DNA of 39,866 nucleotides from Verrucomicrobiales bacterium (GTDB lineage Bacteria > Verrucomicrobiota > Verrucomicrobiia > Verrucomicrobiales > V1-33): assembly GCA_947462995.1 (NCBI GenBank), contig CANHUG010000001.1, positions 1-39,866 of the forward strand. Direction: 5' to 3'. The notes below the pieces were generated by a model. The model was given only the letters and a program-made list of their open reading frames with translations. It had not been told where the DNA came from and ran no database searches. Below, piece by piece: positions 4,187 through 39,194 of this stretch (positions are counted from its first letter, which is position 1; each line of letters starts with the position of its first letter). The translations under genes and the position numbers were made by a program.

Positions 4187-4799
4187 TGTCTAACATTCAC
4201 TGCCGCATGCCTCCAAGGAACAAGCCATCCAAGGCCCCTGCGGTTGAACCAGCCCCGCAATAGCACCGGAGATGATCGATGCGCCTTGCGTTTAGCGCCT
4301 CCGCCTTGATCGCCCTTTTACCGCAGACTTCAGACATTTCAAGGGCTCTTGATAGGCTTCTGACAAGGCTGCGGAGATTATTGCACAACTGCTCTGGAAG
4401 CGGCGGGGACACATCTCGCTCATTCGGGTCCGGCGCGGGCGCGGGCTCTGCGCGGCGCGGTCGCCGTTGGTTTCGAGAAGAGCCGCCCCCAGTGACCTGC
4501 CCTCTTGGATTCCCCTTTGCCACACAGAACCCTCCGCAGTCACCGAAGAATCGTGCGCTCCCAACTCGTCCACCGACCACCTTCACTCCAGAGGCCTGAC
4601 CGCATATCACCTTTTCTCCGCCCCCTCTAGCGGCCAAAGTGTCGCGAAAGGGCGTAAAAGGCTTATCGCACCATCTGCAGACGCGTCGTCGCCGATGCAT
4701 TTGCATTTCAGGTAGTGGACTCTACCGTTGCACGCCGTCCGAGGTTTGCGACTCCTCTTCTCCCTTCCTTTTGTCTCCATTCGACCGCTCACGAAACGC

Positions 4800-22320: not shown

Positions 22321-22356
22321 CGCCGCCGCCCCCAACTCGGGTGCGGCGGCTTTTTT
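22321..22356 (+). terminator. Rho-independent terminator after rpmF
   Basis: GCCGCCGCCCC-aactc-GGGtGCGGCGGC followed by TTTTTT (22351-22356), about 30 nt after the rpmF stop. Confidence 0.8.
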
Positions 22357-22406
22357 GCGCCCGGATTTCATCACCGCCGCCCCAACCTCCCACGCCTTCC
22401 CTCCCC

Positions 22407-23438
22407 ATGCCGATTGATCTCCGCAGCGACACCATCACGCAACCCACCCAAGCCATGCGCGCCATCATGGCCGCCGCCCCCGTCGGCGACGATGTCTTCG
22501 GCGACGACCCCACCGTCAAACTCCTCGAAACTCGTGTCGCCGAACTGCTCGGCAAGGAAGCCGCCCTCTTCGCACCCTCGGGCACCATGACCAATCAACT
22601 CGCCCTCCGCGCCCTCGCAGACTCCGGCGACGAGATCCTCATCGACGCCAACGCCCACATCTACTACTACGAAGCAGGCGGCCCCGCCGCACTCTCCGGC
22701 CTCTCCTGCCGCTGTCTCCCCGGCATCCGCGGAATCTTCACCGCAACAGACCTCCAAGCCGCTCTCCGCCCGCCCGATCAGCACTTCCCTCCCTCCAAGG
22801 TCGTCTGCGTCGAAAATACCCACAACCGCGGCGGCGGCACCATCTGGCCCATCTCCCAACTCCGGGAAATCGAAACCGTCTCCCGACACCACGGCCTCAA
22901 ACTCCACCTCGACGGCGCTCGTCTCTGGAACGCCACATCCGCCACCGGCATCCCCGAACACGAATACGCCGCCCCCTTCGACACCGTCAGCGTCTGCTTC
23001 TCCAAAGGCCTGGGAGCACCCGTCGGCTCCGCCCTCTGCGGCCCACGCGACATCATCCAGCGCGCCCGCCGGTTCCGCAAAATGCTCGGCGGCGGCATGC
23101 GCCAATCCGGCATCCTCGCCGCCGCCGCACTCCACGCCCTCGAACATCACCGCGCACGACTCGCCGACGATCACGCCAATGCCCGCGCCCTCGCCCTCGG
23201 CCTCTCCACCCTCCCCGGCATCACCATCGATCCCGCCTCCGTCGCCACGAACATCGTCCTCTTCAACGTCACCCCCGGAACCGCTCCCCAATTCGCCGCG
23301 ACCCTGGACGCCGCAGGCGTCCGCATGCTCCCCTTCGGCCCAGACACCATCCGCGCCGTCACCAGTCTCATGGTCACCGCCGACGACATCGCCGCAGCCC
23401 TGCGCATCATCGCCAAGACCCTCAAACCCGCCAGTTGA
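22407..23438 (+). CDS. ltaE: Low-specificity L-threonine aldolase (PLP-dependent)
   Basis: [69 protein letters not shown]...ENTHNRGGG...[11 protein letters not shown]...[17 protein letters not shown]. All are hallmark beta-eliminating lyase/threonine aldolase motifs, including the PLP lysine in FSKGLGAP. The ATG at 22407 is preferred over the track start. Confidence 0.9.
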
Positions 23439-23502
23439 CCAGGTCGTCCCAGCAAATCACCGCTCAACGTTCGACGCCACCGCCACCGCCACCGCCTTCG
23501 TC

Positions 23503-24828
23503 ATGTCCAAACTCCATCTCGCCGCCGCCGTCGCTGCCATCGCCGTCACCTTCGCCGTCGTCCAGTTCCTCCAGAACCAGCAACTCAAGGCAGCCCTCAA
23601 CGCCCGTCAGTCCGCCGCAATAAACCCTGACAATTCCAACGCGCCTCAGCCTCCATCCACCAGCAAGGCCAACGCCGCCACACCACCCGTCTCAACACCC
23701 GCCTCCCTCCGCGACATCCTCGCCCAGAAAGACCCGATGCGCCGCATCCAGTCGCTCCTCGACTACGTCAGCCGCATCCCAAAAGACGGAATCGCCGCCG
23801 CCATCTCCGAACTCCAGCAGGGCTCCCCGGAATGGGACCGCGAAACCAAAATGATCATCCACCTCCTGCTCACCCGCTGGGCCGCAGAAGACCCGGACGC
23901 CGCCATCGCCAGCCTCAACACCATCGAAGCCTCCAAACGCGGCGAATACGCTAGCAGCATCCTCGCCAGCATCGCCGCCAATGACCCGAAACGCGCCGCC
24001 GCATGGCTCGATGACCCCGCCAACGCTCTCGTCGACTTCCCCCTCATGGGCCACATCCTCGCCGGCTCGGTCGGCAAGGAATGGGTCCGTCAGGACCCCG
24101 ACGCCGCCCTCTCATGGGCCGCCACCCTGCCCGAAAACCAGCGCGCCGGCGCCTACTTCGGCATCCTCGGAACACTCGCCGCCTCCGACCCCGCCAAGTC
24201 CGCCGACATCGCCGCCAGTCTCCCCGCTGGCTCCGACAAAAACAAGCTCCTCGCTGACATCGGCACCTCATGGGCCCGCCGCTCGCCGGACGATGCCCTC
24301 GCATGGGCCAACTCTCTCGAAGGCACTGAACGCACCACCGCCATGCGCGGTGCCCTCGGATCATGGGCCACCACCAACCCAGCCAAAGCCGCCGATTACA
24401 TCCAGTCTCTCCCACCGGATTCCGTCACCGGCCCGCTCCTCGAATCAGTCGCCGAACCATGGACGGTCTCCGCACCCAAGGACGCCGCCGCATGGGTCAT
24501 GGCCCACCCTAACGAGGCCGCCCGCAACGACGCCATCGGCAACGTCATGTGGAACTGGACCAAACAAAACCCCGCCGAAGCCTCCACATGGCTCACCAAC
24601 CAGCCCGCAGGCCCAGCTCGCGACGAAGGCATCGACGGTCTCGCCCTCGCCACCTTCGACAACGACCCCGCCGGAGCCCTCACATGGGCCGCCAGCATCT
24701 CCGACGAATCCCACCGCGCCCGCTCCGTCGGCATCGGCATCGCCGCATGGGTCAAACGCGACGCCTCATCCGCAGCCGCATGGGCCGCCCGCAACAACAT
24801 CCCTCTCCCCGCCCCGTCCGGGAACTAG
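23503..24828 (+). CDS. Membrane-anchored alpha-helical repeat protein (441 aa), paralog of 37271-38692
   Basis: The ATG at 23503 gives MSKLHLAAAVAAIAVTFAVVQFL, an N-terminal TM anchor, then a Pro/Ser/Ala linker. This is followed by about 10 HEAT-like ~35-aa repeats of pattern W...dP..A..W...LP.g..r......l...W (for example DPDAALSWAATLPENQRAGAYFGILGTLAASDPAKSADIAASLPAG...). The part of the track ORF upstream of 23503 overlaps ltaE in another frame. Confidence 0.75.
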   Translation: MSKLHLAAAVAAIAVTFAVVQFLQNQQLKAALNARQSAAINPDNSNAPQPPSTSKANAATPPVSTPASLRDILAQKDPMRRIQSLLDYVSRIPKDGIAAAISELQQGSPEWDRETKMIIHLLLTRWAAEDPDAAIASLNTIEASKRGEYASSILASIAANDPKRAAAWLDDPANALVDFPLMGHILAGSVGKEWVRQDPDAALSWAATLPENQRAGAYFGILGTLAASDPAKSADIAASLPAGSDKNKLLADIGTSWARRSPDDALAWANSLEGTERTTAMRGALGSWATTNPAKAADYIQSLPPDSVTGPLLESVAEPWTVSAPKDAAAWVMAHPNEAARNDAIGNVMWNWTKQNPAEASTWLTNQPAGPARDEGIDGLALATFDNDPAGALTWAASISDESHRARSVGIGIAAWVKRDASSAAAWAARNNIPLPAPSGN

Positions 24829-24857: not shown

Positions 24858-25367
24858 ATGCGCAGCGTCACCATCACTCTGCTCCAGATGTGCACCCCGG
24901 AAGCCTTGCGCCCCAGCCCCTGCCCGGACCCCGGCTTCACTATCCACGAACGCCCCACCCCCGACGGCACCTTCAACCGCTCTCTCTACCTCGCCGTCGG
25001 CGCTCCATGGCAATGGACCGACAAAGCAGACTGGTCCGCAGAACAATGGCACGCCTACGCCTCATCCAATTCCCTCAGAACCTTCGAAGCCTCATTGCAC
25101 CGCTCCCTCGCAGGCTACTTCGAACTCCGACACGATGGCTCCGGCGGCATCGAAATCGCCTACTTCGGACTCCTCCCCGACTTCACCGGCCGCGGCCTCG
25201 GCGCCTCCATGCTCTCCACCGCCCTGGCCACCGCATGGCAATCCTCACCGCAGCGCGTCTGGGTCAGCACCTGCTCGCTCGACCACCCCGCCAGTCTCCG
25301 CAACTACCTCGCCCGCGGCATGTCCGTCTACCACACCGAAACCAAACCGCTGCCGGATTCACCCTAG
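24858..25367 (+). CDS. GNAT family N-acetyltransferase (169 aa)
   Basis: From the ATG at 24858: ...GYFELRHDGSGGIEIAYFGLLPDFTGRGLGASMLSTALATAW....RVWVSTCSLDHPASLRNYLARGM. This is the typical acetyl-CoA binding Q/R-x-x-G-x-G/A motif (TGRGLGAS) in a GNAT fold context. Its 3' end overlaps the convergent kinase gene by 9 nt. Confidence 0.8.
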   Translation: MRSVTITLLQMCTPEALRPSPCPDPGFTIHERPTPDGTFNRSLYLAVGAPWQWTDKADWSAEQWHAYASSNSLRTFEASLHRSLAGYFELRHDGSGGIEIAYFGLLPDFTGRGLGASMLSTALATAWQSSPQRVWVSTCSLDHPASLRNYLARGMSVYHTETKPLPDSP

Positions 25368-26723
25368 CGCCAACGTCTCCTCCGCCGGCAGCCGCAGCAC
25401 AAACTCCGTCCACTCCCCATCCGACCGCATCAGCTCGAGCTCCCCGTTCTGCGCCCTCGCCAATCCCTGAGCAATGTTCAGCCCGAGTCCGTGTCCCTTC
25501 ACATCCTCACCCGACGCCGCACGGTAGAATCTGTCAAACAAATGCGCCCGGTGCTCCTCCGGAATCGCCGGCCCCGTGTTCGCCACCCTGACCGAAACCC
25601 CGTCTGCACCGCACCCCCCGGAAATCACAATCCGACCGCCCTCTCCCGCATACTTCACCGCGTTCTCCCCGAGATTCTGCAGTATGATCGCCACCCGCCT
25701 CGCATCCCCCAGCGCCGGTAGCATCTCAGGCAACTCACTAACCACCTCCAACCCCCTCGCCCCGGCCTGCACCTCCAGATCATCCACCACCGCCCGACCC
25801 AATTCCGCCAGGTCAATCCGCCCGGGCTCCAGCTTCAATCGCCCCGCATCAATCTGCGCCAGCAGCAGCAGATCCGATGTCAGGGTCGTCAATCGCCGCG
25901 TCTGCTTCATCAATCCCTCCAGCTCCACCGCCACTCCCGCAGGCAATCCCGGCTGCGCCATCAGCCCGTCCAGCCCCGCCCGCATTACCGCCAGCGGTGT
26001 CCGCAACTGATGCGACGCATCCGCCGAAAACCGCGCCGCACTGGCATACGCCCGCTGCAACCGGTCAAACGATCGGTTCAGCACCTCCGTCATCGCCGCA
26101 ATCTCACTGCTCGCATCCAGCAGCGGCAGTCTCGCCTCCGGATTCGACGCATCAATCCGCTCCGCCGCCGCACTCAGCGCCGCCACCGGCCTCAACGCCC
26201 GATTCCCCAGCAACCACCCCACCGCAAACACTAGCACCCCCATCACCGGAGCCACCATCAGGGTCGCATTCCGCAAATCCTCCTGCATCGCCTCAATCGT
26301 CCCCAGTCTCGTCCCGATGTGCACCCTCAGAAACCCATGCTCAAACGTCCCGATCCTGCTCTCCCGGTCCGCAATCATCACCGTCGCATGCTGCTCCTGA
26401 ATCCCTGACAGATCCCGTCCCCGCAGATTCGCCGACCGATACAGCAACTGCCCCTCCGGCCCGTTGATCTGCAGATACCGCCCCCGCAGCACCGCCGGCA
26501 CTAGCCGCTCGGACACCGGCTTCCGGAAATCCTGAGGAGCCCCGCGGAAGTTCTCAATATCCCGGAACAATTCCTCCGCATTCCCCGCCAGTTGCTCGTC
26601 CAGCTCCTTCAGCTGCGTCCGGTACACCAGCGGCCGCAGCACTAGCAATCCCAACCCCAGCGCCGCCACACTCAGACACGCCGCCGCCAGCCCGAACCTC
26701 GTCCTCAGCGACCACCGGTTCAT
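25359..26723 (-). CDS. Sensor histidine kinase (two TM segments, periplasmic loop, HAMP, HisKA, HATPase_c)
   Basis: TM1 is GLAAACLSVAALGLGLLVL and TM2 is LMVAPVMGVLVFAVGWLLG, followed by a HAMP-like segment. H-box: FSADASHQLRTPLAVM. N-box: LQNLGENAVKYA. G-boxes: VANTGPAIPEE and GHGLGLNIAQGLA. The ATG overlaps the response-regulator stop (ATGA at 26720-26723). Confidence 0.92.
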   Translation of the reverse strand: MNRWSLRTRFGLAAACLSVAALGLGLLVLRPLVYRTQLKELDEQLAGNAEELFRDIENFRGAPQDFRKPVSERLVPAVLRGRYLQINGPEGQLLYRSANLRGRDLSGIQEQHATVMIADRESRIGTFEHGFLRVHIGTRLGTIEAMQEDLRNATLMVAPVMGVLVFAVGWLLGNRALRPVAALSAAAERIDASNPEARLPLLDASSEIAAMTEVLNRSFDRLQRAYASAARFSADASHQLRTPLAVMRAGLDGLMAQPGLPAGVAVELEGLMKQTRRLTTLTSDLLLLAQIDAGRLKLEPGRIDLAELGRAVVDDLEVQAGARGLEVVSELPEMLPALGDARRVAIILQNLGENAVKYAGEGGRIVISGGCGADGVSVRVANTGPAIPEEHRAHLFDRFYRAASGEDVKGHGLGLNIAQGLARAQNGELELMRSDGEWTEFVLRLPAEETLALG

Positions 26724-27394
26724 GCCACTTTCAGCCGGTAACCCGCCCCGCGGACAGTTTCAATCACCGGCACCCCCGCCCCGCCTTCCAGCTTCTTCCT
26801 CAACCGCATGATGAAAATCTCCACCGTCCGCGTGTCATACTCATGCTCCCGCTGCCAGATCCGCTCGCAGATCTCATCGCGCGAAAACGTCCTCCCCGGC
26901 TCGCTCAGCAGAATCTTCAGCACTTCCATCTCCCGCGGCGACAACGCCACCGCCTCCCCACTCACCACCACCCGCCGCGCCCTCACATCCATCGTCAGCT
27001 CGCCCGCCTGCAGCACATCCGACTTCTCCACCGGAACCCCCCGCCGCCCCAGCGCCTCCACCCGCGCTAGCAATTCCTCCATCGCAAACGGCTTCGTCAG
27101 ATAGTCATCCGCACCCGCCTTCAACCCCTGCACCCGATCCCCGATCTCCGCCCTCGCCGTCAGCATCAGCACCCGCGACCCGGAACCGGACTTCCTCAAT
27201 CGCTGCATCACCTCGAATCCATCCATCCCCGGCAGATTCACATCCAGCACCACGATGTCAAAGCGCCCGCTCAACGCCTGCTTCAATCCCCCTGGCCCGT
27301 CCGCCGCATGCTGCGCATCATGGCCCGCACGCGTCAGCGCACGCACCACATGCCCTGCAAGGGCTTCTTCGTCTTCAATCACAAGAGTGTTCAT
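26720..27394 (-). CDS. OmpR/PhoB family DNA-binding response regulator
   Basis: Receiver domain: MNTLVIEDEEALAGHVVRAL...DIVVLDVNLPGMDGFEV...LMLTARAEIGDRVQGLKAGADDYLTKPFAMEELLARV. Winged-helix output: ..LSPREMEVLKILLSEPGRTFSRDEICERIW.......TRTVEIFIMRLRKKL......IETVRGAGYRL. Confidence 0.93.
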   Translation of the reverse strand: MNTLVIEDEEALAGHVVRALTRAGHDAQHAADGPGGLKQALSGRFDIVVLDVNLPGMDGFEVMQRLRKSGSGSRVLMLTARAEIGDRVQGLKAGADDYLTKPFAMEELLARVEALGRRGVPVEKSDVLQAGELTMDVRARRVVVSGEAVALSPREMEVLKILLSEPGRTFSRDEICERIWQREHEYDTRTVEIFIMRLRKKLEGGAGVPVIETVRGAGYRLKVA

Positions 27395-27500
27395 CGGCAG
27401 CTCCGTCAGTTCGCGTTCCTCCCATCCAATCAGCTTCCACTCCCTCCCGCAATCCCCTCGACGTAACCAAATGGATGGATTTCAACCCCGGCACCCTCCC

Positions 27501-29768
27501 TCACGGCCGCGGTCTGCTCACCGTCAGCCGCATGAACCTCATCGGTCCCGCCGAAACACTCACCGTGTCCCGTGCCCGCAGCATCACCCCGGAACTGCCC
27601 ACCACCGCCGCAGGCGTCCACGTCCGCAGATCCCCACTCACCTGCACCGCCACCACCGCATCCTTCGGGCGCAACGGGCTGAGCGGAACCTGCATCCATT
27701 GATATTTCGACCCACCCACCGCTTCAATCCCATGCTGCAGCCACCCCGGCGCTGATCGATACGTCGGATCCAGTCCCAGCGCATACTCAATCTCATCCGC
27801 CAGTCCGTCACCATCACTGTCCACCCCGGATTCCGCCACCCCCACCGTCAACGACACCGCAGCCGGCAGCGACTCCCGGTAACCAGACGCATCGCTCGCC
27901 GTCCACGTGAATCCATCCGCTCCGCTGTATCCAGGCTCAGGATAATACACCGCCGACATCCCGCTCACACCCACCGTCCCATGCTGCGGCTGCTGCACGA
28001 TCCGAATCACCGGAGCCGTCCCACCCGCCGGCAGCAGCACCATCGTCGGCCCTTCCCCTGCCACCGCCTTCGCCATCCCCGCCACCGACGGCCGCAACCG
28101 GGTCGTAGCATTGCTGCTCGACGGCCCGTTGTGACACTCATAACAACCTACCTCAACGCCGCGTACCAACGCAAGGTTCCCGTACTTCGTGCTCAACGTC
28201 CGGTCCCCGAACGCCCTCGACAGCACCGTCCCACGGTAATCCTTCCCATGACACTTCTGACATTCCACCAGCCCAACCGCCCGCGCATCGTCCGCATGCT
28301 CCCGCGCCCACCCATTGCCAGTCGGATGCATCCCGTGAGGTCCGCCCGCCACCGTCACAGGCATCGCAGCATGACAGGCCGTGCACTCCGCGAGCACCCC
28401 CACATGCCCCTGCAGCGCCACTGCATGAAGGTTGTCATTCCGATGCGTCGCCGGAAACTCCGCATGCGTCGACCCGTGACAAGCCGAACACTGCAACCCG
28501 CCATGCCCGCTCGAAAACCGGTACAATGACTTCCCCGCCGCCGGAGTGTCCGCATTCGTCGCAAACCTCCGGTTCGCTGGCTCTCTCATCCGGCCCGGCG
28601 CAGCAAACGAACTCAAATACCGGATCAGCCCGTCGTTGTTCACCGCATCGCCACTGTGACACGACTGACATGTCGGCTCGTCCAGCCAACCCGTGCGCGT
28701 CTCCGCACCCACATCGCCCATCCCGCCGTGACAACTCTGACACTGCATCGCCATCGCTCCATCCGCACCCACCGCCGCACCCATCGCCCCACGCAGACAC
28801 TTCGTCGCCGACCCCGGATGACATTGATAGCACGCCGTCCGGCTCGCCGATGATCCCAGCGGCAAACGGTCGTCCGGATTGATCACCGTCGCATGCTTCG
28901 CATGCATCGATCGCGTCAGCGGCGCCACCCCCGGATACCCTCCCGTCCCCAGCGCCTCCGACGCATGACACGCCGCACAAAGCACCGCCTTCCCCCGGTG
29001 CACCGCACTCTCATACAACCCTTCCGCCGCAAACCCCTTCGCCGCCAGCGCCGCCGCATAAACCGCAGACCCCGCACTCCGTTCATCATGCAGCCGCAGA
29101 ATATTCAGCCGGAAATCCCTCCGGCCATCCGGCTCGTTCACCCATCCGCCCGCAGGCTCTCCAGCAGGCCCGGACCCCGACGCATGGCAAGCCCGGCAAT
29201 CCATCTCGTCCGACACCGGCAGCACCACCTCCGCCTTCGCTAGCAACGCACCCGCCGCATTCCGCGCCGTGACCCTCATCAGCGGATAAGCATTGCGCCG
29301 CCCCACATCATCCACCGGCGTAATCGGAATCCCCGCCGCCTCAAACCACCGCATCCCGCCAACCCACGTCATCGCCTGCGGCACATTCGCCACTCCAGGC
29401 ATCGCATTCCCAGCCAACCCCAGCTCCGGCCGCAGCGCCACCCCATACCCGCCAACAGCAAACTCCCAGAAGTTCGTCTTCCCCGCAGAATGCGTGTTGA
29501 TCGATCCGTCAGGGTCCGCCACCGCCTCGTACGTCAGCCGGATGCCCACCGCCGCAGCATCCACCACCAATCGCCCGCTCTGATCGAGCAGTTGCGCGTT
29601 CACCGTGTTGAACGGCGGCAGAATCGAGAACACCGAGTAGTCGTCGTCCATGCAGTGCATCCCCAGATTGTTCCACGCTGTCAGGGTCCACTGACCACCC
29701 CCGGCACCCGCCCGGCACAAAACGCCTATCATGACACCTAATGTCATTGCGGAGATTCGAATGTTCAT
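27501..29768 (-). CDS. Secreted nonaheme c-type cytochrome fused to an Ig/cadherin-like domain and the shared C-terminal module (755 aa)
   Basis: Signal peptide MNIRISAMTLGVMIGVLCRAGAGG. Hand indexing finds nine CxxCH motifs: CRACH 191, CAACH 264, CYQCH 313, CQSCH 343, CQSCH 367, CSACH 427, CTACH 462, CQKCH 503 and CYECH 542 (nt about 28131-29198). The heme-free N-terminal ~160 aa begins WNNLGMHCMDDDYS. The Ig-like segment is IVQQPQHGTVGVSGMSAVYYPEPGYSGADGFTWTASDASG. The tail is DSDGDGLADEIEYALGLDP...MRFMRLTVSRPRP. Confidence 0.88.
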   Translation of the reverse strand: MNIRISAMTLGVMIGVLCRAGAGGGQWTLTAWNNLGMHCMDDDYSVFSILPPFNTVNAQLLDQSGRLVVDAAAVGIRLTYEAVADPDGSINTHSAGKTNFWEFAVGGYGVALRPELGLAGNAMPGVANVPQAMTWVGGMRWFEAAGIPITPVDDVGRRNAYPLMRVTARNAAGALLAKAEVVLPVSDEMDCRACHASGSGPAGEPAGGWVNEPDGRRDFRLNILRLHDERSAGSAVYAAALAAKGFAAEGLYESAVHRGKAVLCAACHASEALGTGGYPGVAPLTRSMHAKHATVINPDDRLPLGSSASRTACYQCHPGSATKCLRGAMGAAVGADGAMAMQCQSCHGGMGDVGAETRTGWLDEPTCQSCHSGDAVNNDGLIRYLSSFAAPGRMREPANRRFATNADTPAAGKSLYRFSSGHGGLQCSACHGSTHAEFPATHRNDNLHAVALQGHVGVLAECTACHAAMPVTVAGGPHGMHPTGNGWAREHADDARAVGLVECQKCHGKDYRGTVLSRAFGDRTLSTKYGNLALVRGVEVGCYECHNGPSSSNATTRLRPSVAGMAKAVAGEGPTMVLLPAGGTAPVIRIVQQPQHGTVGVSGMSAVYYPEPGYSGADGFTWTASDASGYRESLPAAVSLTVGVAESGVDSDGDGLADEIEYALGLDPTYRSAPGWLQHGIEAVGGSKYQWMQVPLSPLRPKDAVVAVQVSGDLRTWTPAAVVGSSGVMLRARDTVSVSAGPMRFMRLTVSRPRP

Positions 29769-29835
29769 GGCACATGGTTTTCAGGGGTTCTCTCAACTCT
29801 CACAAGATTCGCCCGCCTCCCGGCACCGCCACCCG

Positions 29836-32451
29836 TCAGGGATGACTCAGCCGGTAAAACCGCCGCGGCCCGACAAGCTCCACCAGCGCCGTCAACCCAT
29901 TCGCCGCCGGCACCACCGCAGCCCCACTCGGACGCCAACCCGCCACATCCACACCGTCATTCTCCTCCAGCACCCAACCCGTCGCATCCGCAGCCCAAGT
30001 CAGCCGCATCCGACCGCCAGCCTCCGCTTCCACTCCCAGCACGGGAACAAACACCGCCGTCAGCACCCGATCCGCCGTCGCCGTAAACGAATACTCCTCC
30101 GCCCGACTCACCTCCACTCCACCCTCGATCCACCGCACAAACTGATACCCTTCAGCCGCCACCGCCCGCAACCTCACCTCCGCTCCATCCACAGGAAATC
30201 CTCCCCCGCTCACCGTCCCGCCACCAGAGGGAGCCGCCCCGACACTCACATTCCACGAAATCCCGCTGCCACCAGCAAAGGTCGCCACCAGATGCCGCAC
30301 CGGATTCGCCTTGAATTGATACTCCGCCTCCGTGCTCACCTCCACTCCATTCTCCTTCCAACTCAAAAACGTGTACCCAGGATTCGCCGTCGCCGTCACC
30401 GTCACTTTATCCCCATCCTCAAACGTCCCCTCGACCAACGCCGTCCCGCCCTGCGGCGGACTCGACTCCACAGTCACCGGATAAACCCTCACAAACCGCG
30501 CCGTCAGGGTCCGCACCGCACCGACCGTGAAACTGTACTCCGCCGACGTGCTCACCGTATTCCCGTTCTCCTGCCAGCGCTTGAACTGATACCCCGCACT
30601 CGCCACCGCACGCACCGTGCAAACCGATCCAACCGCCAGGGTCCCACCCCCACTCGCCGTCCCTCCCGCCGTCGGATTGCTCAGCGTCGCAATCGTGCGC
30701 ACTCCGCCGTCCACCGTGAAATTCGCCACCAGCACGCGGTTCGCCGCCGCTGCAAAACTGTAACTCGCCGACGCACTCACCACCGTCACTCCCTCCGTCC
30801 AGTTAGTAAAAACATACCCGCCAGCCGCCACCGCCCTCACCGTCACCATCGTCCCCTCATCCTTGATCCCCCCGCCGCTCACCGTACCGCCAGCCACAGG
30901 CAACGCCACCGTCTCAATGTTCCACTGCGGCACACTCACCGCAAACTTCGCCACCAGCGAATGATTCACATCCATTTCAAAGCTGTGCCTCGCCTCCACA
31001 CTAACCACCGCGCCCGCCTCCTCCCAGTGCACAAACCGGTACCCGGCCCCAGCCACCGCCGTCACCGTCGCCATCGCTCCCACCGCATACGCATCACTCC
31101 CAGTCACCGTCCCGCCAGCCAGAGGCTCCGCCACCGTATCCAGCACATAATGCGGCGCCACCTCTCCATCCGCCCCGCTCACCGTCATCGTATACGTCTT
31201 CGCCTTCTCCGGCGTCGCCTCATCACTCGCCGTCACCGTGAAAGTGAACACTCCCGCATCCTCAGGCGTCCCCGACAACACCCCGGTCACCGCATCAAAA
31301 CTCATCCCCGCAGGCATTGCCCCCGACACCCGGCTGCTGAACGGCCCCACCCCCGCAATCACCACCGTCCGCGGCGCATACTCCTCACCCGCCACCCCGT
31401 CACTAACGTGCTCGGTCAACCCCACCCCGGCATCCACATCCACCGCCGCCATCTGCGCCCCAGTGTACTCACCCACCACCTCCACTCCGCTCAGATCCGT
31501 CAGCACGCCATTCACTTCCTTTAACCCAAGGCCATGCACGCCATCGGGCGCCACCGAATCACACATCGCCTCCCCCGTCTCCGTATCCACCGGCCCGTTG
31601 TAGCGGTAGAATTCATAACGCCGCGTCACCACTTCATCCCCCTGCTCCAGCGCCTCCGGAGCCGCTTCGTGATTCCCGTTAGGCCCGCCATCCGCCCTCG
31701 CAAACTCCGTCTGCATCAGCTCCCACTCGGTCTCCACTTCGTCCGGCTCGCCATTACGCCAGTTCTTGTCATTCGGATCGTCAGGATCATCGGATACCAG
31801 ATCCCGCAGCTTCACCTCCCCGTTGTTGTGCGTCGTCGTCCGGATTTCCTTCACCCACACCGGCTCCCCGAACTCCTTCACCGGAACCTCCGCCGGCTCA
31901 GGAGGCTGAATCACCGCCTGCACCTGCGCCGGTGCCGCCGCCACCGGAGGATAATACACAAACACCGGCGTCGCCACCTGCACCACTCCCCCGTTCACCA
32001 GATTCCCAGACCCGTCATCCACCAGCCAGTGATAACGCACCGCCGTCGGCGGCGTCATGTACCCCACCCCGAAATGCTCGCCCCCGAAATTGATGCTCGG
32101 ATTCGTGAACATATGCCCGTCCGTCGCCGCAATCGGCCCCGCCGGAATCGCCGTGTACGACGCCCACGTCCCATCCGCATTCTTCCTGCTCGCCCACCGG
32201 ATCACGCACTTCGGATGCCCAGCCACCGTGTTGTCCTCGGTGATCTTCGGCACGCCGTAATGATTGTAATCATACGTGTAGCTGATGTCCGTGCTCCGGC
32301 AGTCATCCAGCTCGATCTCGAACCCATGACACTCTTTGCCAGTGTCGTTGACCGTGTCGAAATTGTTAATACTCCCGTACGCAATGCTCGCGTGACCCCG
32401 GCCCGCAGAGCAGGCCAGCATCAATGACAGTATCCATGTCCTGATTTTCAT
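29836..32451 (-). CDS. Secreted multidomain protein (871 aa): unknown N-terminal domain, Ig-like (He_PIG-type) domain, five InlB-B-repeat-like modules and a C-terminal RFYRL tail
   Basis: Signal or lipoprotein-like N-terminus MKIRTWILSLMLACSAG. About 355 aa have no motif I recognise. Then comes an Ig-like unit (GAMPAGMSFDAVTGVLSGTPEDAGVFTFTVTASD). Five ~75-aa repeats follow, of pattern V...p..GGtvsGgG.y..G..vtv.A.a..GY.F..W.E.g..vs....ysF.......l.A.F (about 30050-31165). The tail is ..RMRLTWAADATGWVLEENDGVDVAGW...RRFYRLSHP. Confidence 0.85.
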   Translation of the reverse strand: MKIRTWILSLMLACSAGRGHASIAYGSINNFDTVNDTGKECHGFEIELDDCRSTDISYTYDYNHYGVPKITEDNTVAGHPKCVIRWASRKNADGTWASYTAIPAGPIAATDGHMFTNPSINFGGEHFGVGYMTPPTAVRYHWLVDDGSGNLVNGGVVQVATPVFVYYPPVAAAPAQVQAVIQPPEPAEVPVKEFGEPVWVKEIRTTTHNNGEVKLRDLVSDDPDDPNDKNWRNGEPDEVETEWELMQTEFARADGGPNGNHEAAPEALEQGDEVVTRRYEFYRYNGPVDTETGEAMCDSVAPDGVHGLGLKEVNGVLTDLSGVEVVGEYTGAQMAAVDVDAGVGLTEHVSDGVAGEEYAPRTVVIAGVGPFSSRVSGAMPAGMSFDAVTGVLSGTPEDAGVFTFTVTASDEATPEKAKTYTMTVSGADGEVAPHYVLDTVAEPLAGGTVTGSDAYAVGAMATVTAVAGAGYRFVHWEEAGAVVSVEARHSFEMDVNHSLVAKFAVSVPQWNIETVALPVAGGTVSGGGIKDEGTMVTVRAVAAGGYVFTNWTEGVTVVSASASYSFAAAANRVLVANFTVDGGVRTIATLSNPTAGGTASGGGTLAVGSVCTVRAVASAGYQFKRWQENGNTVSTSAEYSFTVGAVRTLTARFVRVYPVTVESSPPQGGTALVEGTFEDGDKVTVTATANPGYTFLSWKENGVEVSTEAEYQFKANPVRHLVATFAGGSGISWNVSVGAAPSGGGTVSGGGFPVDGAEVRLRAVAAEGYQFVRWIEGGVEVSRAEEYSFTATADRVLTAVFVPVLGVEAEAGGRMRLTWAADATGWVLEENDGVDVAGWRPSGAAVVPAANGLTALVELVGPRRFYRLSHP

Positions 32452-32592
32452 AAATTTTACAAATTGTTAGATGTTCACTTCCACACCGGGCCGGAACCGG
32501 CAGTTCATCGGCACGCACCACCACAGGCCGTCTGGCGCTCCCCGCTCGGGCAAGCCCCCTGCTTCCAAATTCTGAGAATTCCCCGAGTCTGT

Positions 32593-32634
32593 CACAAACC
32601 ATCCCTGCGGCGGGCTCGGGTTCCCGCCGCAGGG
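32593..32634 (-). terminator. Probable intrinsic terminator after the acidic TSP3-like gene
   Basis: Perfect 11-bp GC-rich inverted repeat ccctgcggcgg (32603-32613) / ccgccgcaggg (32624-32634) with a 10-nt loop, 15 nt after the stop at 32650. On the minus strand it is followed by ATGGTTTGTG, which is only moderately T-rich. Confidence 0.5.
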
Positions 32635-32649
32635 ATTTCAGCTAGCAGT

Positions 32650-34395
32650 TCACAATGACGCCGGCAGCAACCCAGTGAAGAGGTCCGTGTCCCCTTTGCG
32701 GATCTTCACCACCGCGCCGGCACTTGCGAAGTCCAGCATCAGGTCCCCGCGCGCCGCGTCTGGCTCGGTATCCCAGCGCAGCTTCGCTTCACCCCCGGCA
32801 CTCACCAGCACCCCGCGCACCACCCCGTCGATCAGCACCGCATACTCCCCGTCCTCTAGCGCCTCGGCCTCCACCTCAAGACTGACAATCCCCGCCACCC
32901 CGAAGTCCGCAGCAGCCGTCACCACCGCCGCCGCCGGCGCTTCCGCCGTCCGCGTCAGGACCACCGCGCCAGCCGGAGTCTCACCACCGCCACCATCCTC
33001 ACCATCCGCCACTCCGGGACCAGCCGCAGGCACGTTCCCCGTGAAATACACCGCCTCACCCTGCACAATGCTCACCGGCAATCCCGCCGCCGCAAAATCC
33101 AGCGGCAGCCTCCCCTCCGATATCTTCGCCTCGGTGTCCCAGCGGACTTTACCCTTGCCTCCCGATACCGTCATCACCGCTCGCTCCTCGCCCCCGATCA
33201 CCACCGTGTAACTCCCCGCCTCAAGGGCCTCAACCTCCAACTCCAGCGATACCACCCCGGCTCCGCCAAACTCCGCTTCAAGCTTGCCCTTCGCACTCAC
33301 CGGAGCAGCCGGCCCCGGAATCAACCGGTCAGACCCCGGCGTCACCACCACTCCAACACCCGTCGGCGCATCCGGCGGCTGCGGCACCGTGCCCGCAAAG
33401 TAAACCACTCCAGCCCTGCCAACCGTGATCGACTTCCCGATCACATCAATTGTCAGGTTGATCTCATCCTGGTCGTTCGCATTCGTCTCCCACTGCTGCT
33501 CGCCCTCGCCACCAGCATCAATCACCATCTGCCCGATCACCACTCCATCGACCGTCACGTCCACCGCACCAGCCGTAAGGCCGCGCGCATCAAGCTCCAG
33601 CTCCACCTTGCCGGTCGCCATCCGCTGAATCTTCACACGGCTCCGGCTGCCCGAAGGAGCCGCCTGCCGCGCAAGACTGACCTGCACTTCCAGCTCGTCG
33701 GCTTCACCACGGTGATCCGGGTCGTTGTTGTCCTCGACTCCGTCATTGTCGTCATCCGCATCCGCACGGTCCGGAAGGCTGTCACCATCGTCGTTATCCT
33801 CCGCCGCATCGTCATCGGCGCGATTGTCTCCATCCGTATCCATCTCGGCGTTGTCATCATTGTTCCTCCCGTCGCCGTCCACGTCCGCATCATTGTCATC
33901 GCTCGTGTTGTCACCGTCGATATCCATCTCCGTGTCGTCGTCGTCCGCAAATCCATCCCCGTCGATGTCGTCTTCCGCAGCCTCATCGTCATTCTGCCCG
34001 TCGCCATCAACATCCCGCTCCGCCGCACTGTCATCATTCCGGCGGTCCCCATCCGTATCGTTCTCCAGGGGGCTGTCGTCCGCACGGCCATCACCATCAA
34101 TGTCACGGTCGGCCAGCGATCCATCGTCCTGCCCGTCGTCATCAATGTCACGCTCCGCAGGACTGTCGTTGTCGAGGTGGTCCCCGATGTGCTTCCCGGC
34201 ATGCGGTCCGGACCGGGCAATTCCGCCATCAATGTTGCGGTCAAGGGCATTCGGTACCCCGTCGTTGTCAATGTCAGGATCGACAATGTTCGGTACCCCG
34301 TCTCCGTCAAGATCAGGCGCCCGCCCCGCCGCACTGGCGGAAGCTGCGGCAAACAGGGTGGCGGCGACAAGGGCGCTGAGGGATCGGCTTTTCAT
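32650..34395 (-). CDS. Secreted hyper-acidic thrombospondin-type-3-like calcium-binding repeat protein with three ~105-aa beta-rich repeats (581 aa)
   Basis: The ATG at 34395 gives MKSRSLSALVAATLFAAASASAAG, a signal peptide. About 225 aa of DxDxDGxxDD-type repeats follow (DLDGDGVPNIVDPDIDNDGVPNALD...DIDGDGRADD...DVDGDGQNDD...DIDGDGFADDDD...DVDGDGRNNDD...). Then come three related modules, each ending (Y/L)F(A/T)G..P and containing (R/Q)W(D/E)T(E/N) and L.(L/I)DF/DV motifs. It has no RF.RL.V tail. Confidence 0.85.
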   Translation of the reverse strand: MKSRSLSALVAATLFAAASASAAGRAPDLDGDGVPNIVDPDIDNDGVPNALDRNIDGGIARSGPHAGKHIGDHLDNDSPAERDIDDDGQDDGSLADRDIDGDGRADDSPLENDTDGDRRNDDSAAERDVDGDGQNDDEAAEDDIDGDGFADDDDTEMDIDGDNTSDDNDADVDGDGRNNDDNAEMDTDGDNRADDDAAEDNDDGDSLPDRADADDDNDGVEDNNDPDHRGEADELEVQVSLARQAAPSGSRSRVKIQRMATGKVELELDARGLTAGAVDVTVDGVVIGQMVIDAGGEGEQQWETNANDQDEINLTIDVIGKSITVGRAGVVYFAGTVPQPPDAPTGVGVVVTPGSDRLIPGPAAPVSAKGKLEAEFGGAGVVSLELEVEALEAGSYTVVIGGEERAVMTVSGGKGKVRWDTEAKISEGRLPLDFAAAGLPVSIVQGEAVYFTGNVPAAGPGVADGEDGGGGETPAGAVVLTRTAEAPAAAVVTAAADFGVAGIVSLEVEAEALEDGEYAVLIDGVVRGVLVSAGGEAKLRWDTEPDAARGDLMLDFASAGAVVKIRKGDTDLFTGLLPASL

Positions 34396-34501
34396 TTTTT
34401 GTGCAATGGTTGGGGCGCTCACGTGAATATTGGATCGGATCGCCGGATGAATCAAAGTGTCTGAGGTAACGGTGTGGTTGGGAAATCGTCGGCCCTCCAT
34501 C

Positions 34502-37156
34502 TCAGCGCACCACGCGGTGCCTCAAAAACCGTCTCCGTGCCCCCGGCAACGCGCTCCCATCACGAATCAAAACCTCCCTCACCCCCGCCCCCGCAATCTC
34601 GCCCGACACATACCCAACCCCGCTCCATGGCCCGCCATACACGCTCATCGCCAACGTGTTCCATGGCCCCGCAAGATCGTCCGCCACCTCCACCGATACA
34701 GTCACATCGCTCCGCGCCGGATCCCGCCGCACTCTGCTCTCCAGCACCCCGCCCAACCCCATCACCACCTCCGGCAGCGACCCGGCATCATTCACCGTCG
34801 GATTCAGCAGCAGCCCGTATTCCGCAAGATTCGGCACGCCGTCGAAATCAGGATCCCCCAGATCCGCCGCTTCCGCATCGCCCAGCCACTCCTGTTTCCA
34901 CTGCTGCAGCGGCCCAAACGCGGAAAACCGGAACACCGTGCCACCACCACCCGCCCCGCCCGCAGGCGTCGTCCCCGTCACCACACCGTCCGCCCCAACC
35001 AACACCCCACCCGTCACCACCAATCCACCATCCACAAAACCTCCCCGCCCCGGAGCCTCCCCGCCATTCCCAGTAAAAGAAAACAATCCCTCCAGGCCCA
35101 CCCCCGCACGGTACTTCCAGACCGCCCCATACCCTCCCGTCCCGCCTTCCGTCGTCATCCCGTAAAGCGCTCCATCCGCACCCACCGCAACCGACCCCGC
35201 CGGCACCACACCCGTCGCCCCTCCAAACTCCGCCACCACCGCCCAGTCATTGCTCGCAGGCCGCACCCGGATCAGCGCCCCGCCATCCGCCGCCCCTCCC
35301 CGACTCACCGTCCCGTACAAATTCCCGTCAACCCCTAACACCAACCCACCCAGCGGCACCCGCGGCCCACTCGCCGTAAACTCCCCGACCGTCGTCAGCA
35401 CCCCGCTCGCAGACACCCGGAAAATCGTCCCTGCATCCGCCGCCCCACCGCCTTCTGTCATCCCGTAATAACTCGCATTCGGCGCTAACACAACTCCACC
35501 CCGGGGGCGCAATCCCTTCGCCGTCCCTGCCGTTCCCGTAAAGCTAACCACCCGCGTCCGCACTCCCGCCGCCGTCACTTTGTAAATCGTTCCCCGCCCC
35601 GTCGCCCCGCCTTCCCTCGCCGTCCCGTACATCCCCCCGTCACTCCCCAATACCAGCGGCCCCTCCGGCAGGCTCCCGCCACTCAACGTCGCCGCCGACA
35701 CAGCCGCCAATCCCGCCTCGCCAAACCGATACACCGTTCCCCGCCCATTCGCCCCGCCTCCAGACGCCACCCCGTAATAATCCGCACCCACCCGCACTAA
35801 CGTCCCCTCCGGCGCACTGCCGATCAGCCCGCCTAACATCACATCCACCGCCACCGCCCCGCCCGCTCCCATCCGCACCACCGTCCCGCCACCATTCAAC
35901 CCACCCGTCCGCATCGGAAAAAGCCAGTCCGCACCTCTCGCCACCGGCGCTCCCGACGGCATCCAACCCATCGGCGCCCCAAACGCCGCAACCACCCCAT
36001 ACACCCCACCCGTCGACACCCTGAAAATCCCGCCATTCTCCCCCACCATCCCCGCACTGACACTCCCGTACAGCCAGCCATCGCCTCCCAGCGTCAACCC
36101 GCCCCGCGGCACCGATCCCGCCGCCGCCCCCACCGTCCCCGTCAACGATGCCACCACCGCATGCACCCCGCCAGTCGTCAGGCTGAACACAGTCCCGAAC
36201 CCACCCGCGCCCCCGCTAGCCGTAGTCCCATACAGCAACCCATTACTCGCCCGCGCCAGCGCCCCCGTCGGCTGCGATCCCGTCGCATCCGCAAACGCCC
36301 GCAAACTCGTGAACGCCCCCGCCGTCGTCAGCCGCCACGCCGTCCCGAAATCGTTAGCACCCCCGAACTCCGTCGTCCCGTATAGATTCCCGTCACTGTT
36401 CAGCAGCAACCCGCCCCCAGGATTCGCCCCTGGCCGCGCCCCTCCCGTCCCGCTGAATTCCGCTAGCAATCCATACACCCCGCTCGTCGTCACACTGAAC
36501 ACCGTCCCAAGACCTGCACTCCCGCCCTCGCGCGTCACGCCGTACAATGTGTTCCCATTGAACACCATCGCCCCCACCGGCCCGGACCCTTTCGCCGCTC
36601 CACCCGTACCCGTGAACTCCACCAGCGTCGTCAGCACCCCGCCAGTCGTCAGCCGGAACACCGTCCCGAACCCGCCCGCACCACCAGCCGCCGTCGTCCC
36701 GTAAAAATTCCCGTCACCGTGCCGCACCAGTTGCTGCGGCACCGCCCCGCGCGCCGCACCACCCGTCCCCGTAAACGAAAGCACCGTCGCAAACTGCCCA
36801 GCCTCCGTCACCCGGAACACCGTCCCGTACCCGCCCGCACCACCCTCACTCGTCGTCCCGAAAAACTCCCCGCCCAACCCAGCCGTCAACCCGCTCACCG
36901 GACCCGCCCCATCACTCCCGCCAAACGAATGCACCGTCCTAACCACGCCGTCACCACCCACCCTGACCACTGACCCCAGTCCATTCGCCCCGCCCGCCGA
37001 CGCCGTCGCATACCACCGCCCATCCCCCCCGGCACTCAACGGTGCCATCGGCTGCACCGCCGGCCGCTCAAACGCCGCCACCAACTCATACCCCGCCAAC
37101 GCCCGCATCGCCGTGCACGCCATAGCTGAAAGTCCGATCGTCAGGTGTCGCTTCAT
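34502..37156 (-). CDS. Secreted GloVer (Gloeo_Verruco) tandem-repeat protein with the shared C-terminal module (884 aa from the ATG at 37156)
   Basis: Signal peptide MKRHLTIGLSAMACTAMRALAG. About 14 repeats of ~47-50 aa follow, of pattern G.LYGTT..GGa.g.GTvFrl...G..t.l..F.g..Ga.p.g.L....dG, which is the signature I recall for the choice-of-anchor GloVer repeat. The tail is LQQWKQEWLGDAEAADLGDPDFDGVPNLAEYGLLLNP...RRRFLRHRVVR. The track start 37195 is GTG. Confidence 0.88.
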   Translation of the reverse strand: MKRHLTIGLSAMACTAMRALAGYELVAAFERPAVQPMAPLSAGGDGRWYATASAGGANGLGSVVRVGGDGVVRTVHSFGGSDGAGPVSGLTAGLGGEFFGTTSEGGAGGYGTVFRVTEAGQFATVLSFTGTGGAARGAVPQQLVRHGDGNFYGTTAAGGAGGFGTVFRLTTGGVLTTLVEFTGTGGAAKGSGPVGAMVFNGNTLYGVTREGGSAGLGTVFSVTTSGVYGLLAEFSGTGGARPGANPGGGLLLNSDGNLYGTTEFGGANDFGTAWRLTTAGAFTSLRAFADATGSQPTGALARASNGLLYGTTASGGAGGFGTVFSLTTGGVHAVVASLTGTVGAAAGSVPRGGLTLGGDGWLYGSVSAGMVGENGGIFRVSTGGVYGVVAAFGAPMGWMPSGAPVARGADWLFPMRTGGLNGGGTVVRMGAGGAVAVDVMLGGLIGSAPEGTLVRVGADYYGVASGGGANGRGTVYRFGEAGLAAVSAATLSGGSLPEGPLVLGSDGGMYGTAREGGATGRGTIYKVTAAGVRTRVVSFTGTAGTAKGLRPRGGVVLAPNASYYGMTEGGGAADAGTIFRVSASGVLTTVGEFTASGPRVPLGGLVLGVDGNLYGTVSRGGAADGGALIRVRPASNDWAVVAEFGGATGVVPAGSVAVGADGALYGMTTEGGTGGYGAVWKYRAGVGLEGLFSFTGNGGEAPGRGGFVDGGLVVTGGVLVGADGVVTGTTPAGGAGGGGTVFRFSAFGPLQQWKQEWLGDAEAADLGDPDFDGVPNLAEYGLLLNPTVNDAGSLPEVVMGLGGVLESRVRRDPARSDVTVSVEVADDLAGPWNTLAMSVYGGPWSGVGYVSGEIAGAGVREVLIRDGSALPGARRRFLRHRVVR

Positions 37157-37270
37157 GATTTCCCCATCGTTAACCACGCCCGCTCTCCCGGCCACCCGCT
37201 CTCCGTAACCGTCACGTTACGCTTCAACAGTTTCCAAATCCTCTTCCCGCGCCATCATCCCCTCCATCGC

Positions 37271-38711: not shown

Positions 38712-39089
38712 TCAGCTCAGCTCGGCGATCACTTCGATCTCCACAAGGGAATCCAGCGGCAGCTTCGCCACCTGCACCGTGCTCCGCGCCGGCTTGTGAC
38801 TCCCAAACGCCGCCGCATACAGCTCGTTCATCGCCGCAAAATCCCCCAGATCCTTCATAAACACGGTCGCCTTCACCACGTTCGCAAACGTCGCCCCCGC
38901 CGCCGCCAGCAACGCACTCAAATTCGCCAGCACCTGCTCAGTCTGCCCCCGGATCTCCACCGCCTCGATCTTCATCGTCGCTGGATTCAACGGCAGCATC
39001 CCCGCACAAAACAGCAGATGCCCGCTCCGGATCGCCTGCGAATAAGGCCCGACCGCCGCCGGTGCTTGTTCAGAACTGATAATCTCCAT
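38712..39089 (-). CDS. ridA: RidA/YjgF family reactive-intermediate (enamine/imine) deaminase (125 aa)
   Basis: MEIISSEQAPAAVGPYSQAIRSGHLLFCAGMLPLNP.T........I..QTEQVLANLSALLAAAGATFANVVKATVFMKDLGDFAAMNELYAAAF....PARSTVQVAKLPLDSLVEIEVIA is the canonical RidA sequence pattern. Only the last 125 codons of the 311-codon track ORF are used. Confidence 0.92.
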   Translation of the reverse strand: MEIISSEQAPAAVGPYSQAIRSGHLLFCAGMLPLNPATMKIEAVEIRGQTEQVLANLSALLAAAGATFANVVKATVFMKDLGDFAAMNELYAAAFGSHKPARSTVQVAKLPLDSLVEIEVIAELS

Positions 39090-39194
39090 AGGCCCCAACC
39101 CATGCACACCTCCCGCCGCGCGTCGAGCGCTTACGTCGACTGATGCCCGCCCGCCGCTTGCAAGTTGCCCGTACCCGCGGACGTAGCCTTTGCT

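Follow-up and report, generated by a model that had tools for sequence, protein, structure and literature searches.

What does a secreted multiheme cytochrome do when it is built like an adhesin? The question is raised by a gene of a Verrucomicrobiales bacterium (GTDB lineage Bacteria; Verrucomicrobiota; Verrucomicrobiia; Verrucomicrobiales; V1-33), located on the minus strand at positions 27501 to 29768 of the stretch analyzed here, namely, the 39,866 nucleotides from position 1 of contig CANHUG010000001.1 (assembly GCA_947462995.1), referred to below as the window. The explanation that we favor, with moderate confidence, is a cytochrome anchored at the cell surface that transfers electrons to or from extracellular metals or other redox substrates. 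Verrucomicrobiota and Acidobacteriota rank among the most numerous bacteria of soils and fresh waters, and their dealings with extracellular redox metals and organic matter are largely unknown. If correct, this explanation would add a widespread surface redox module independent of the classical porin-cytochrome conduit. Surface multiheme cytochromes are a known kind of protein; new here are an unrecognized N-terminal domain (N-domain), a new candidate anchoring tail, and a metal-linked context.

The gene and the elements of its product, numbered in amino acids (aa) of the precursor, are as follows.

27501..29768, minus strand: nine-heme c-type cytochrome precursor, whole gene (755-aa open reading frame [ORF], ATG start, nine CxxCH motifs)
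29703..29768, minus strand: type I Sec signal peptide, aa 1-22, with a probable cleavage site after AGA22 (from the sequence and the AxA sites of relatives)
29214..29690, minus strand: heme-free N-terminal β-sandwich domain, aa 27-185, with no Pfam family (AlphaFold2 predicted local distance difference test [pLDDT] about 85-97)
29646..29675, minus strand: invariant loop WNNLGMHCMD, aa 32-41 (invariant columns in both alignments; present in every locus)
28131..29198, minus strand: nine-heme region, aa 191-546 (CxxCH positions, PF22113, motif spacing of an MtrC fragment)
28779..28805, minus strand: invariant loop TxCLRGAMG, aa 322-330, containing C324 (invariant columns)
27840..28076, minus strand: Big_9/cadherin-like Ig domain, aa 565-643 (Pfam PF17963; high-pLDDT β-strands; kept across phyla)
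27504..27836, minus strand: Verrucomicrobial C-terminal tail, aa 645-755, ending in RFMRLTV (tail hidden Markov model [HMM]; pLDDT 84-94)

The CxxCH motifs lie at aa 191, 264, 313, 343, 367, 427, 462, 503, and 542, nine against the approximately 0.02 expected from the amino-acid composition, and the variant heme motifs CxxxCH, CxxxxCH, and CxxCK are absent from the 755-aa protein. Several CxxCH motifs together with a Sec export signal are the general hallmarks of a c-type multiheme cytochrome. The whole protein also exceeds the Pfam cut-offs of Cytochrome_C7 (45 bits) and Cytochrom_c3_2 (28.7 bits). Behind the hemes, Big_9 (PF17963) was matched on aa 586-631, with an E value of 2.7e-5 in the full protein and of 1.1e-6 when the isolated piece was scanned. 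In at least 60 relatives, an AxA-type cleavage site is found 2 to 9 residues upstream of the WNNLGMHC motif and no lipobox is present; the cytochrome itself has no hydrophobic segment other than the signal peptide. Lipoprotein anchoring through C18 was rejected, this residue being unconserved, without a lipobox, and placed within the signal peptide. Hence, the elements that the initial annotation had read from the sequence, i.e., a signal peptide, a heme-free N-terminal domain, nine CxxCH motifs over aa 191-546, and an Ig/cadherin-like domain, were all recovered, the second of them as a modeled β-sandwich. Since the G+C content of the window is 64%, the many overlapping ORFs in other frames are regarded as shadows.

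In the full-length AlphaFold2 model (pLDDT 72), the N-domain, the Ig domain, and the tail are confidently folded, but the heme region is not. A second model, covering aa 24-556 and built from a more diverse alignment of 82 sequences, reached a pLDDT of 83.8 and a predicted template modeling score of 0.85. It places a β-sandwich at aa 27-185, hemes 1 to 5 at aa 191-371, and hemes 6 to 9 at aa 427-546, the two groups of hemes being separated by a linker of about 55 aa. The N-domain has no Pfam match even at an E value of ≤10, and Foldseek retrieved for it only generic Ig/p53-like sandwiches (E ≥ 2.8e-3); by prediction, it is a novel conserved Ig-like domain. With the full-length model as the query, Foldseek matched only the tandem of Ig domain and tail (sialidase Ig and carbohydrate-binding module, phage collar, and Fabs) and was uninformative on the core. 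Among the histidines outside the CxxCH motifs, 8 are invariant and 3 are nearly invariant in both alignments. Since these would suffice for bis-His ligation of all nine hemes, the protein would serve as a wire for electrons and not as a heme enzyme of the classical kind.

Judged by its sequences, the cytochrome belongs to a large, uncharacterized family, of which we found no description in the literature. A protein search returned more than 5,000 clusters of homologues, the best 120 of which are all 740-790 aa long and 52-94% identical to the cytochrome over the full length; relatives are named only "hypothetical," "Ig-like domain-containing," or "PKD" protein. At least 582 of the 599 matched stretches (contigs, one genome per species) encode a relative. 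The carriers among the matches listed belong to Verrucomicrobiota (Verrucomicrobiales, Chthoniobacterales, and Opitutales), Acidobacteriota, Binatia, Planctomycetota, and Myxococcota, and the family also occurs in Thermoanaerobaculia and Vicinamibacterales. A search of representatives with a family profile that included the Ig domain was dominated by giant Big_9-repeat proteins and served only to reveal variants with Ig or BACON arrays N-terminal to the core.

Conservation within the family is high. Exactly nine CxxCH motifs, as well as the motif W-N-[ND]-L-G-M-H-C, are found in all 48 aligned homologues and in all full-length family ORFs of a sample of 80 loci, each taken with 10 kb on either side (L-numbers below label individual loci). 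The alignments of 48 and 82 sequences contain about 130 invariant columns, and the core identity across phyla is about 50-70%. This conserved core extends from about aa 27 to 643 and comprises the N-domain, the hemes, and Big_9, which is present in nearly all members; the sequence beyond varies by lineage. In three loci, the cytochrome gene is duplicated in tandem (L012, 7600-12217; L029, 1039-4112; L062, 92-5670).

The closest characterized proteins are the surface cytochromes of the Shewanella type. PF22113 (Mtrc-MtrF_II-IV_dom) scored 40.2 bits on the whole cytochrome, with a gathering cut-off of 30, and 40 to 50 bits (maximum, 50.4) in relatives, covering positions 8-166 of 176; the two halves of the heme region, scanned separately, gave 30.2 bits (aa 186-380) and 19.3 bits (aa 376-560). 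In a phmmer alignment, four consecutive heme motifs (hemes 2 to 5) are in register with MtrC chain 9eov_A, with spacings of 49/30/24 in the cytochrome versus 51/25/24 in MtrC. Thus, hemes 1 to 5 are predicted to be arranged as in a pentaheme domain of the MtrC type, with hemes 6 to 9 forming a four-heme half. Like MtrC, OmcA, MtrF, and UndA, the cytochrome is exported, carries many hemes, and has a β-domain followed by a predicted pentaheme domain (compare MtrC domains I and II), and its architecture suggests a surface location.

Several features set it apart from these proteins. It has nine hemes in every member, not the ten or eleven hemes laid out in two pentaheme and two β-barrel domains; a type I signal peptide (of the AxA type in all aligned relatives) in place of a lipoprotein signal; a single large β-domain, without the CX8C disulfide domain; and, in addition, the Big_9 Ig domain and a lineage-specific C-terminal module. 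Genes for an MtrAB-type porin and periplasmic decaheme cytochrome are not linked to it in the 80 loci. Because the lipobox, the ten hemes, and the porin-cytochrome partner are absent, the cytochrome is not a member of the MtrC/OmcA family; on sequence grounds, it is probably a distant relative that may work alike. The early impression that no characterized family could be recognized therefore has to be qualified for MtrC/MtrF, given the PF22113 score and the register of hemes 2 to 5, whereas it holds for NrfA and HAO: neither these nor OTR, MccA, or TsdA were matched in Pfam, NCBIfam, or the PDB, and the defining features of MtrC/OmcA are lacking. Cytochrom_C552 (E = 0.26) and an NrfB-type pentaheme subunit (E = 0.053) scored at noise level.

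Two other cytochromes invite comparison. OcwA of Thermincola potens likewise has nine c-type hemes and a proposed role in surface terminal electron transfer and is anchored without a porin complex. Its N-domain and C-terminal modules are unlike those of the cytochrome, whose carriers are diderm, and it appeared neither among the PDB sequence matches at an E value of ≤10 nor among the top 50 Foldseek matches. NrfB resembles the cytochrome locally, over aa 283-347, around the distal-histidine segment MHxKHAxVINP and the next heme motifs (E = 0.018 in the PDB sequence search). This match is short and marginal, and NrfB is a small periplasmic carrier without extra domains. The same searches gave marginal matches to an MtrC fragment (E = 0.2 over aa 256-374) and to a small tetraheme cytochrome.

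The C-terminal part of the cytochrome bears on where it acts. Its last 110 or so residues form a tail that consists of a TSP3-like acidic loop (DSDGDG...EYALGLDP) followed by a β-sandwich ending in RFMRLTV. This tail had been described as common to neighboring proteins, and it is indeed carried by five further large secreted proteins encoded in the window. The six genes lie at 4728-8081 (+), 8488-10173 (+), 10414-20499 (-), 27501-29768 (-), 29836-32451 (-), and 34502-37195 (-); the consensus ending is RF/FFxR[LV]xV, and Sec-type signals open the proteins whose N termini were read. An HMM of the tail, built from the window and iterated, found 52 matches among 993 ORFs of the loci, all of them no more than 12 residues from the C terminus. 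The proteins to which the tail is attached are unrelated: besides the cytochrome, they include GloVer-repeat, delta-60/DUF5122 propeller, giant FG-GAP, Kelch/FN3, CotH/LTD, and InlB-B-repeat proteins. The giant protein of the window (3,361 aa; 10414-20499, minus strand) has 14 FG-GAP-like repeats and an FN3 domain besides the shared tail, and a faint lanmodulin-like EF-hand match at aa 2983-3019.

The tail is a candidate Verrucomicrobial surface sorting or anchoring module. It is reminiscent of the C-terminal domains of the type IX secretion system (T9SS) in that a Sec signal is combined with a β-sandwich of about 100 aa at the extreme C terminus of many unrelated large secreted proteins, but it has no sequence match to them. 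Indeed, none of the sorting signals in NCBIfam (E ≤ 0.1) or Pfam, including PEP-CTERM, the T9SS C-terminal domain, LPXTG, and MYXO-CTERM, matched the tail, and with no hydrophobic segment it lacks a terminal transmembrane helix with a basic cluster. The only matches were weak ones to TSP3_bac in Pfam (E = 0.0068; aa 650-668) and to MtsD in NCBIfam (E = 0.019; aa 646-673, the acidic loop). Two neighboring proteins of the window contain NCBIfam "choice-of-anchor" domains, which in other lineages sit upstream of recognized sorting signals. In Foldseek, the Ig domain and tail aligned with a bacterial sialidase over its Ig-linker and carbohydrate-binding module (E = 1.8e-5, low template modeling score), which faintly suggests that surface glycans may be bound by the tail. 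The shared tail also points to an unrecognized route for sorting or anchoring surface proteins in Verrucomicrobiota.

Outside the group that carries this tail, other modules take its place. The tail of the window type was found in 35 Verrucomicrobial loci, Opitutales members end after the core (640-670 aa), and the C termini in other phyla consist of PKD, HYR-like, BACON, Ig, or choice-of-anchor Z repeats, Pro/Thr linkers, or SLH. FG-GAP is also among the N- or C-terminal additions found across the family, and some relatives have Ig, BACON, or Big_2 arrays N-terminal to the core. Scans of the non-Verrucomicrobial C termini for recognized sorting signals yielded only module-type matches; one strong match, to a model for myxosortase-dependent M36 peptidases, could not be assigned to any of the re-scanned family members. 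In locus L088 (1-10502), an SLH-tailed cytochrome directly follows SLH-anchored S8 and M14 peptidases with CLIPPER repeats, and several small SLH proteins are encoded nearby. In the tandem pair of L012, one copy has the Verrucomicrobial tail and the other a different C terminus. The core thus repeatedly gains the C-terminal module of the local surface proteins, which favors display at or beyond the outer membrane, and we infer surface display of the cytochrome chiefly from this lineage-wise swapping. Since the C-terminal modules are kept in orthologues (the tail in the 35 Verrucomicrobial loci, Big_9 in nearly all members), the cytochrome is not a fusion artefact. The proposal of the initial annotation that the protein is displayed at or beyond the outer membrane is strengthened insofar as surface modules are retained and exchanged by lineage (PKD, HYR, BACON, and SLH); the location itself stays a predicted one.

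Further evidence comes from neighboring genes, three of which may bear on the function of the cytochrome.

26720..27394, minus strand: OmpR-family response regulator (Pfam Response_reg and Trans_reg_C), 106 bp downstream of the cytochrome gene
25359..26723, minus strand: sensor histidine kinase (two transmembrane segments, HAMP, HisKA, HATPase; best match, CusS/CzcS-type heavy-metal sensor)
29836..32451, minus strand: conserved secreted partner, 871 aa, 68 bp upstream of the cytochrome gene (Pfam; recurrent adjacency)

On the minus strand of the window, the order is GloVer protein, acidic repeat protein, partner, cytochrome, regulator, and kinase. The gaps flanking the cytochrome gene measure 68 bp upstream and 106 bp downstream, and a promoter and terminator scan of positions 25000-37600 gave signals at the level of shuffled sequence, none of them informative. 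The association with the two-component system recurs: in the 1.44 Mb of sampled loci, all 13 regulators similar to that of the window lie within 5 kb of a cytochrome gene, in several gene orders. The heavy-metal sensor kinase model TIGR01386 was the top match in each of the seven cytochrome-adjacent kinases tested, and its cut-off of 292.6 bits was exceeded by that of L026 (362 bits). The window regulator scored 193.8 bits with TIGR01387 (cut-off, 279.2) and slightly higher, 200.1 bits, with PhoB.

Metal efflux genes are a second recurrent neighbor. In L005 (5484-12244), the stop codon of a CusA/CzcA pump gene overlaps the cytochrome start by 4 bp, and the pump is bona fide (1,181 bits with a cut-off of 701). 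Genes for czcC/czcB-like (TolC-like and adaptor-like) proteins are found 1.3 to 9 kb from the cytochrome gene in L008 (23-4405), L009 (3700-5575), and L025 (17269-22205), and a multidrug-type resistance-nodulation-division pump abuts it in L035. The adjoining two-component systems, CusS/CzcS-like by best kinase match, and the CusA/CzcA pumps lend support to the earlier suggestion of an interaction with metals; the link between putative metal sensor, efflux pump, and cytochrome makes this idea specific enough for experiments on cultivated strains of the Prosthecobacter or Luteolibacter type. A universal operon across phyla was rejected, the recurrent neighbors being mostly housekeeping genes.

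Put together, the favored explanation would run as follows. Hemes would be attached in the periplasm, after which the cytochrome would be moved across the outer membrane and retained on the outside of the cell through its C-terminal module, in this case the acidic loop, presumed to bind calcium, and the β-sandwich tail. Nine bis-His hemes would make it an electron wire, with the N-domain loop beside heme 1 as a possible docking or substrate site. The two free cysteines, C39 and C324, would either pair in a disulfide staple or act as ligands. In Verrucomicrobiales, the gene would probably be expressed under a CusS/CzcS-like metal-sensing two-component system, along with the conserved secreted partner. 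The most likely job would be electron exchange with redox-active metal species, metal-bearing solids, or humics outside the cell or in its envelope; the protein would work like MtrC/OmcA, without a lipid anchor or a linked porin-cytochrome conduit.

Several observations weigh against this explanation. Within 10 kb on either side in the 80 loci, there is no porin, periplasmic multiheme cytochrome, or other partner that would feed electrons; other multiheme ORFs near the cytochrome were seen in L007 only. Searches of the PDB with single sequences and with the family profile stayed at noise level and allowed no assignment, the profile doing no better. With the core model (pLDDT 83.8) as the query, Foldseek found nothing below an E value of 1e-3, hence no significant match to a solved cytochrome, and MtrC (6qyc_C) appeared only at rank 22 (E = 0.011). 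Ig, PKD, and TSP3 modules are no proof of export past the periplasm. Six of the seven kinases fall below the TIGR01386 cut-off (190.5 bits in the window, 253 in L020), and the links to the two-component system, the pump, and the partner are confined to Verrucomicrobiales-like lineages and absent in most other phyla. Finally, the very high conservation across phyla and the presence of two invariant loops of the cofactor type resemble an enzyme more than a simple wire.

Among the alternatives, the one that fares best, unlikely as we consider it, holds that the cytochrome serves respiration as a terminal reductase of minerals or humics and does the same job as MtrC/OmcA, the metal-sensor neighborhood being incidental. 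When O2 is limiting, respiratory electrons would reach it by way of a conduit whose genes lie in another part of the genome and would be passed on to oxides of Fe(III)/Mn(IV) or to humics. The MtrC-like pentaheme signals and the surface-type architecture agree with such a role. Conduits may well lie elsewhere, as porin-multiheme cytochrome clusters are known from freshwater Verrucomicrobia of humic habitats (He et al. 2017, PMC5615132) and from peat Acidobacteriota and Verrucomicrobiota (bioRxiv 10.64898/2026.05.27.727921). These clusters occur in the same phyla and share the predicted extracellular multiheme cytochromes and the proposed extracellular electron transfer; they differ in being defined by the synteny of porin and periplasmic-cytochrome genes, neighbors that the cytochrome family does not have. 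In addition, the family resides mainly in other orders (Verrucomicrobiales, Chthoniobacterales, Opitutales, Thermoanaerobaculia, and Vicinamibacterales). The lack of linked conduit genes in the 80 loci and of a lipoprotein anchor speaks against a terminal reductase. So does the conservation of the cytochrome, which is far stronger than usual for MtrC/OmcA-type proteins, and the majority of carriers come from lineages whose known lifestyle is mainly aerobic and heterotrophic.

Next comes the possibility, which we regard as rather improbable, that the protein is an extracellular or periplasmic enzyme with an active site formed from the M-H-C-x-D and TxCLRGAMG loops and either heme 1 or heme 3. 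Such a site might be His/Cys-ligated or metal-assisted, its small substrate being, for example, a sulfur species, Cu(I)/Fe(II)/Mn(II), or a reactive oxygen species, and the remaining hemes would act as an electron relay. It is the unusually strong conservation (50-57% identity across phyla) that keeps this proposal alive. M37, H38, C39, and D41 of the N-domain loop are invariant across phyla and, together with D153, D154, E188, and M189, provide invariant acidic or soft-ligand residues near heme 1 in the sequence. C39 and C324 are the only cysteines of the mature protein outside the CxxCH motifs, and the loops that carry them, i.e., the MHC loop region and aa 321-339, are the least confident segments of an otherwise good model, as expected of segments that depend on a cofactor; the TxCLRGAMG loop has a pLDDT of <50 in both models. 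The metal-sensing and metal-efflux neighbors would also suit an enzyme. On the other hand, two lone cysteines of an exported protein are most simply explained by a disulfide. The conserved histidines are enough for nine bis-His hemes, none of the catalytic heme signatures (CxxCK, CX15CH, or a Tyr/Lys cross-link motif) is present in the cytochrome, and, as mentioned above, no known multiheme enzyme family was matched.

In a more far-reaching version, which we think quite doubtful as a whole, the nine-heme chain would be connected to a novel site without heme in the N-domain, making the protein an extracellular metal oxidoreductase. The site would be built from the Met-His-Cys-x-Asp and Cys-Leu-Arg-Gly-x-Met loops; the substrates might be, for example, Cu, Ag, Fe, or Mn ions oxidized or reduced at the cell surface. 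Control would lie with the CusRS/CzcRS-like system, in cooperation with the conserved partner protein. The tail would represent an undescribed, lineage-specific C-terminal system by which Verrucomicrobia sort or anchor their Sec-dependent surface proteins, in analogy to the C-terminal domains of the T9SS.

Least probable of all, and in our view very unlikely, is a three-component system in which the cytochrome would act as a periplasmic or envelope co-sensor that reports redox state or metal load to the adjacent CusS-like kinase without bulk electron flow: the recurrent adjacency of the two-component system in varied gene orders, with 13 of 13 similar regulators within 5 kb, the roughly 118-aa periplasmic domain of the window kinase, which has no obvious ligand motif, and the precedent of accessory heme proteins that work with sensor kinases, such as HbpS-SenS-SenR, are in its favor, but most members outside Verrucomicrobiales lack an adjacent two-component system and have an equally conserved core, nine hemes and surface-anchor modules (SLH and PKD) are excessive for a sensor, and in L005 the cytochrome gene is co-operonic with an efflux pump and not with a kinase.

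Returning to the surface-anchored electron-transfer cytochrome, the secreted partner deserves a description of its own. It comprises an N-domain of about 350 aa, a He_PIG Ig domain, five InlB B-repeats, and the shared tail. For the N-domain, neither Pfam nor the PDB gave a match; this domain is 55-76% identical in the cytochrome-adjoining proteins of 16 loci, within 10 kb. The partner family counts at least 595 proteins, conserved at 52-76%, from Verrucomicrobiota, Acidobacteria, Hydrogenedentes, and a Halioglobus metagenome-assembled genome; the N-domain is followed by He_PIG, InlB B-repeats, or dockerin, and members are also found away from a cytochrome gene. Homology between the N-domains of partner and cytochrome was considered, given the common NN..CH/HC pattern near the mature N terminus, and rejected (hhalign probability of 1%).

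The remaining genes of the cluster and its borders were noted in passing. Between the GloVer protein and the partner, positions 32650-34500 (minus strand) encode a hyper-acidic protein of 616 aa with dozens of DxDGDGxxDD repeats (TSP3 or calcium-binding like) followed by repeated β-rich segments, with no match in Pfam or NCBIfam. The cluster of adhesin-like, cytochrome, and two-component genes is flanked on the opposite strand by two paralogous genes (23179-24828 and 37145-38692, both plus strand) for proteins of about 515 to 550 aa, which have no NCBIfam match and whose relatives occur near the cytochrome gene in L018 and L035. Ordinary metabolic genes occupy the edges: a GntG/threonine-aldolase-type pyridoxal phosphate enzyme at 22341-23438 (plus strand) and a RidA-family deaminase at 38712-39647 (minus strand), the listed start of the latter ORF being probably too far upstream.

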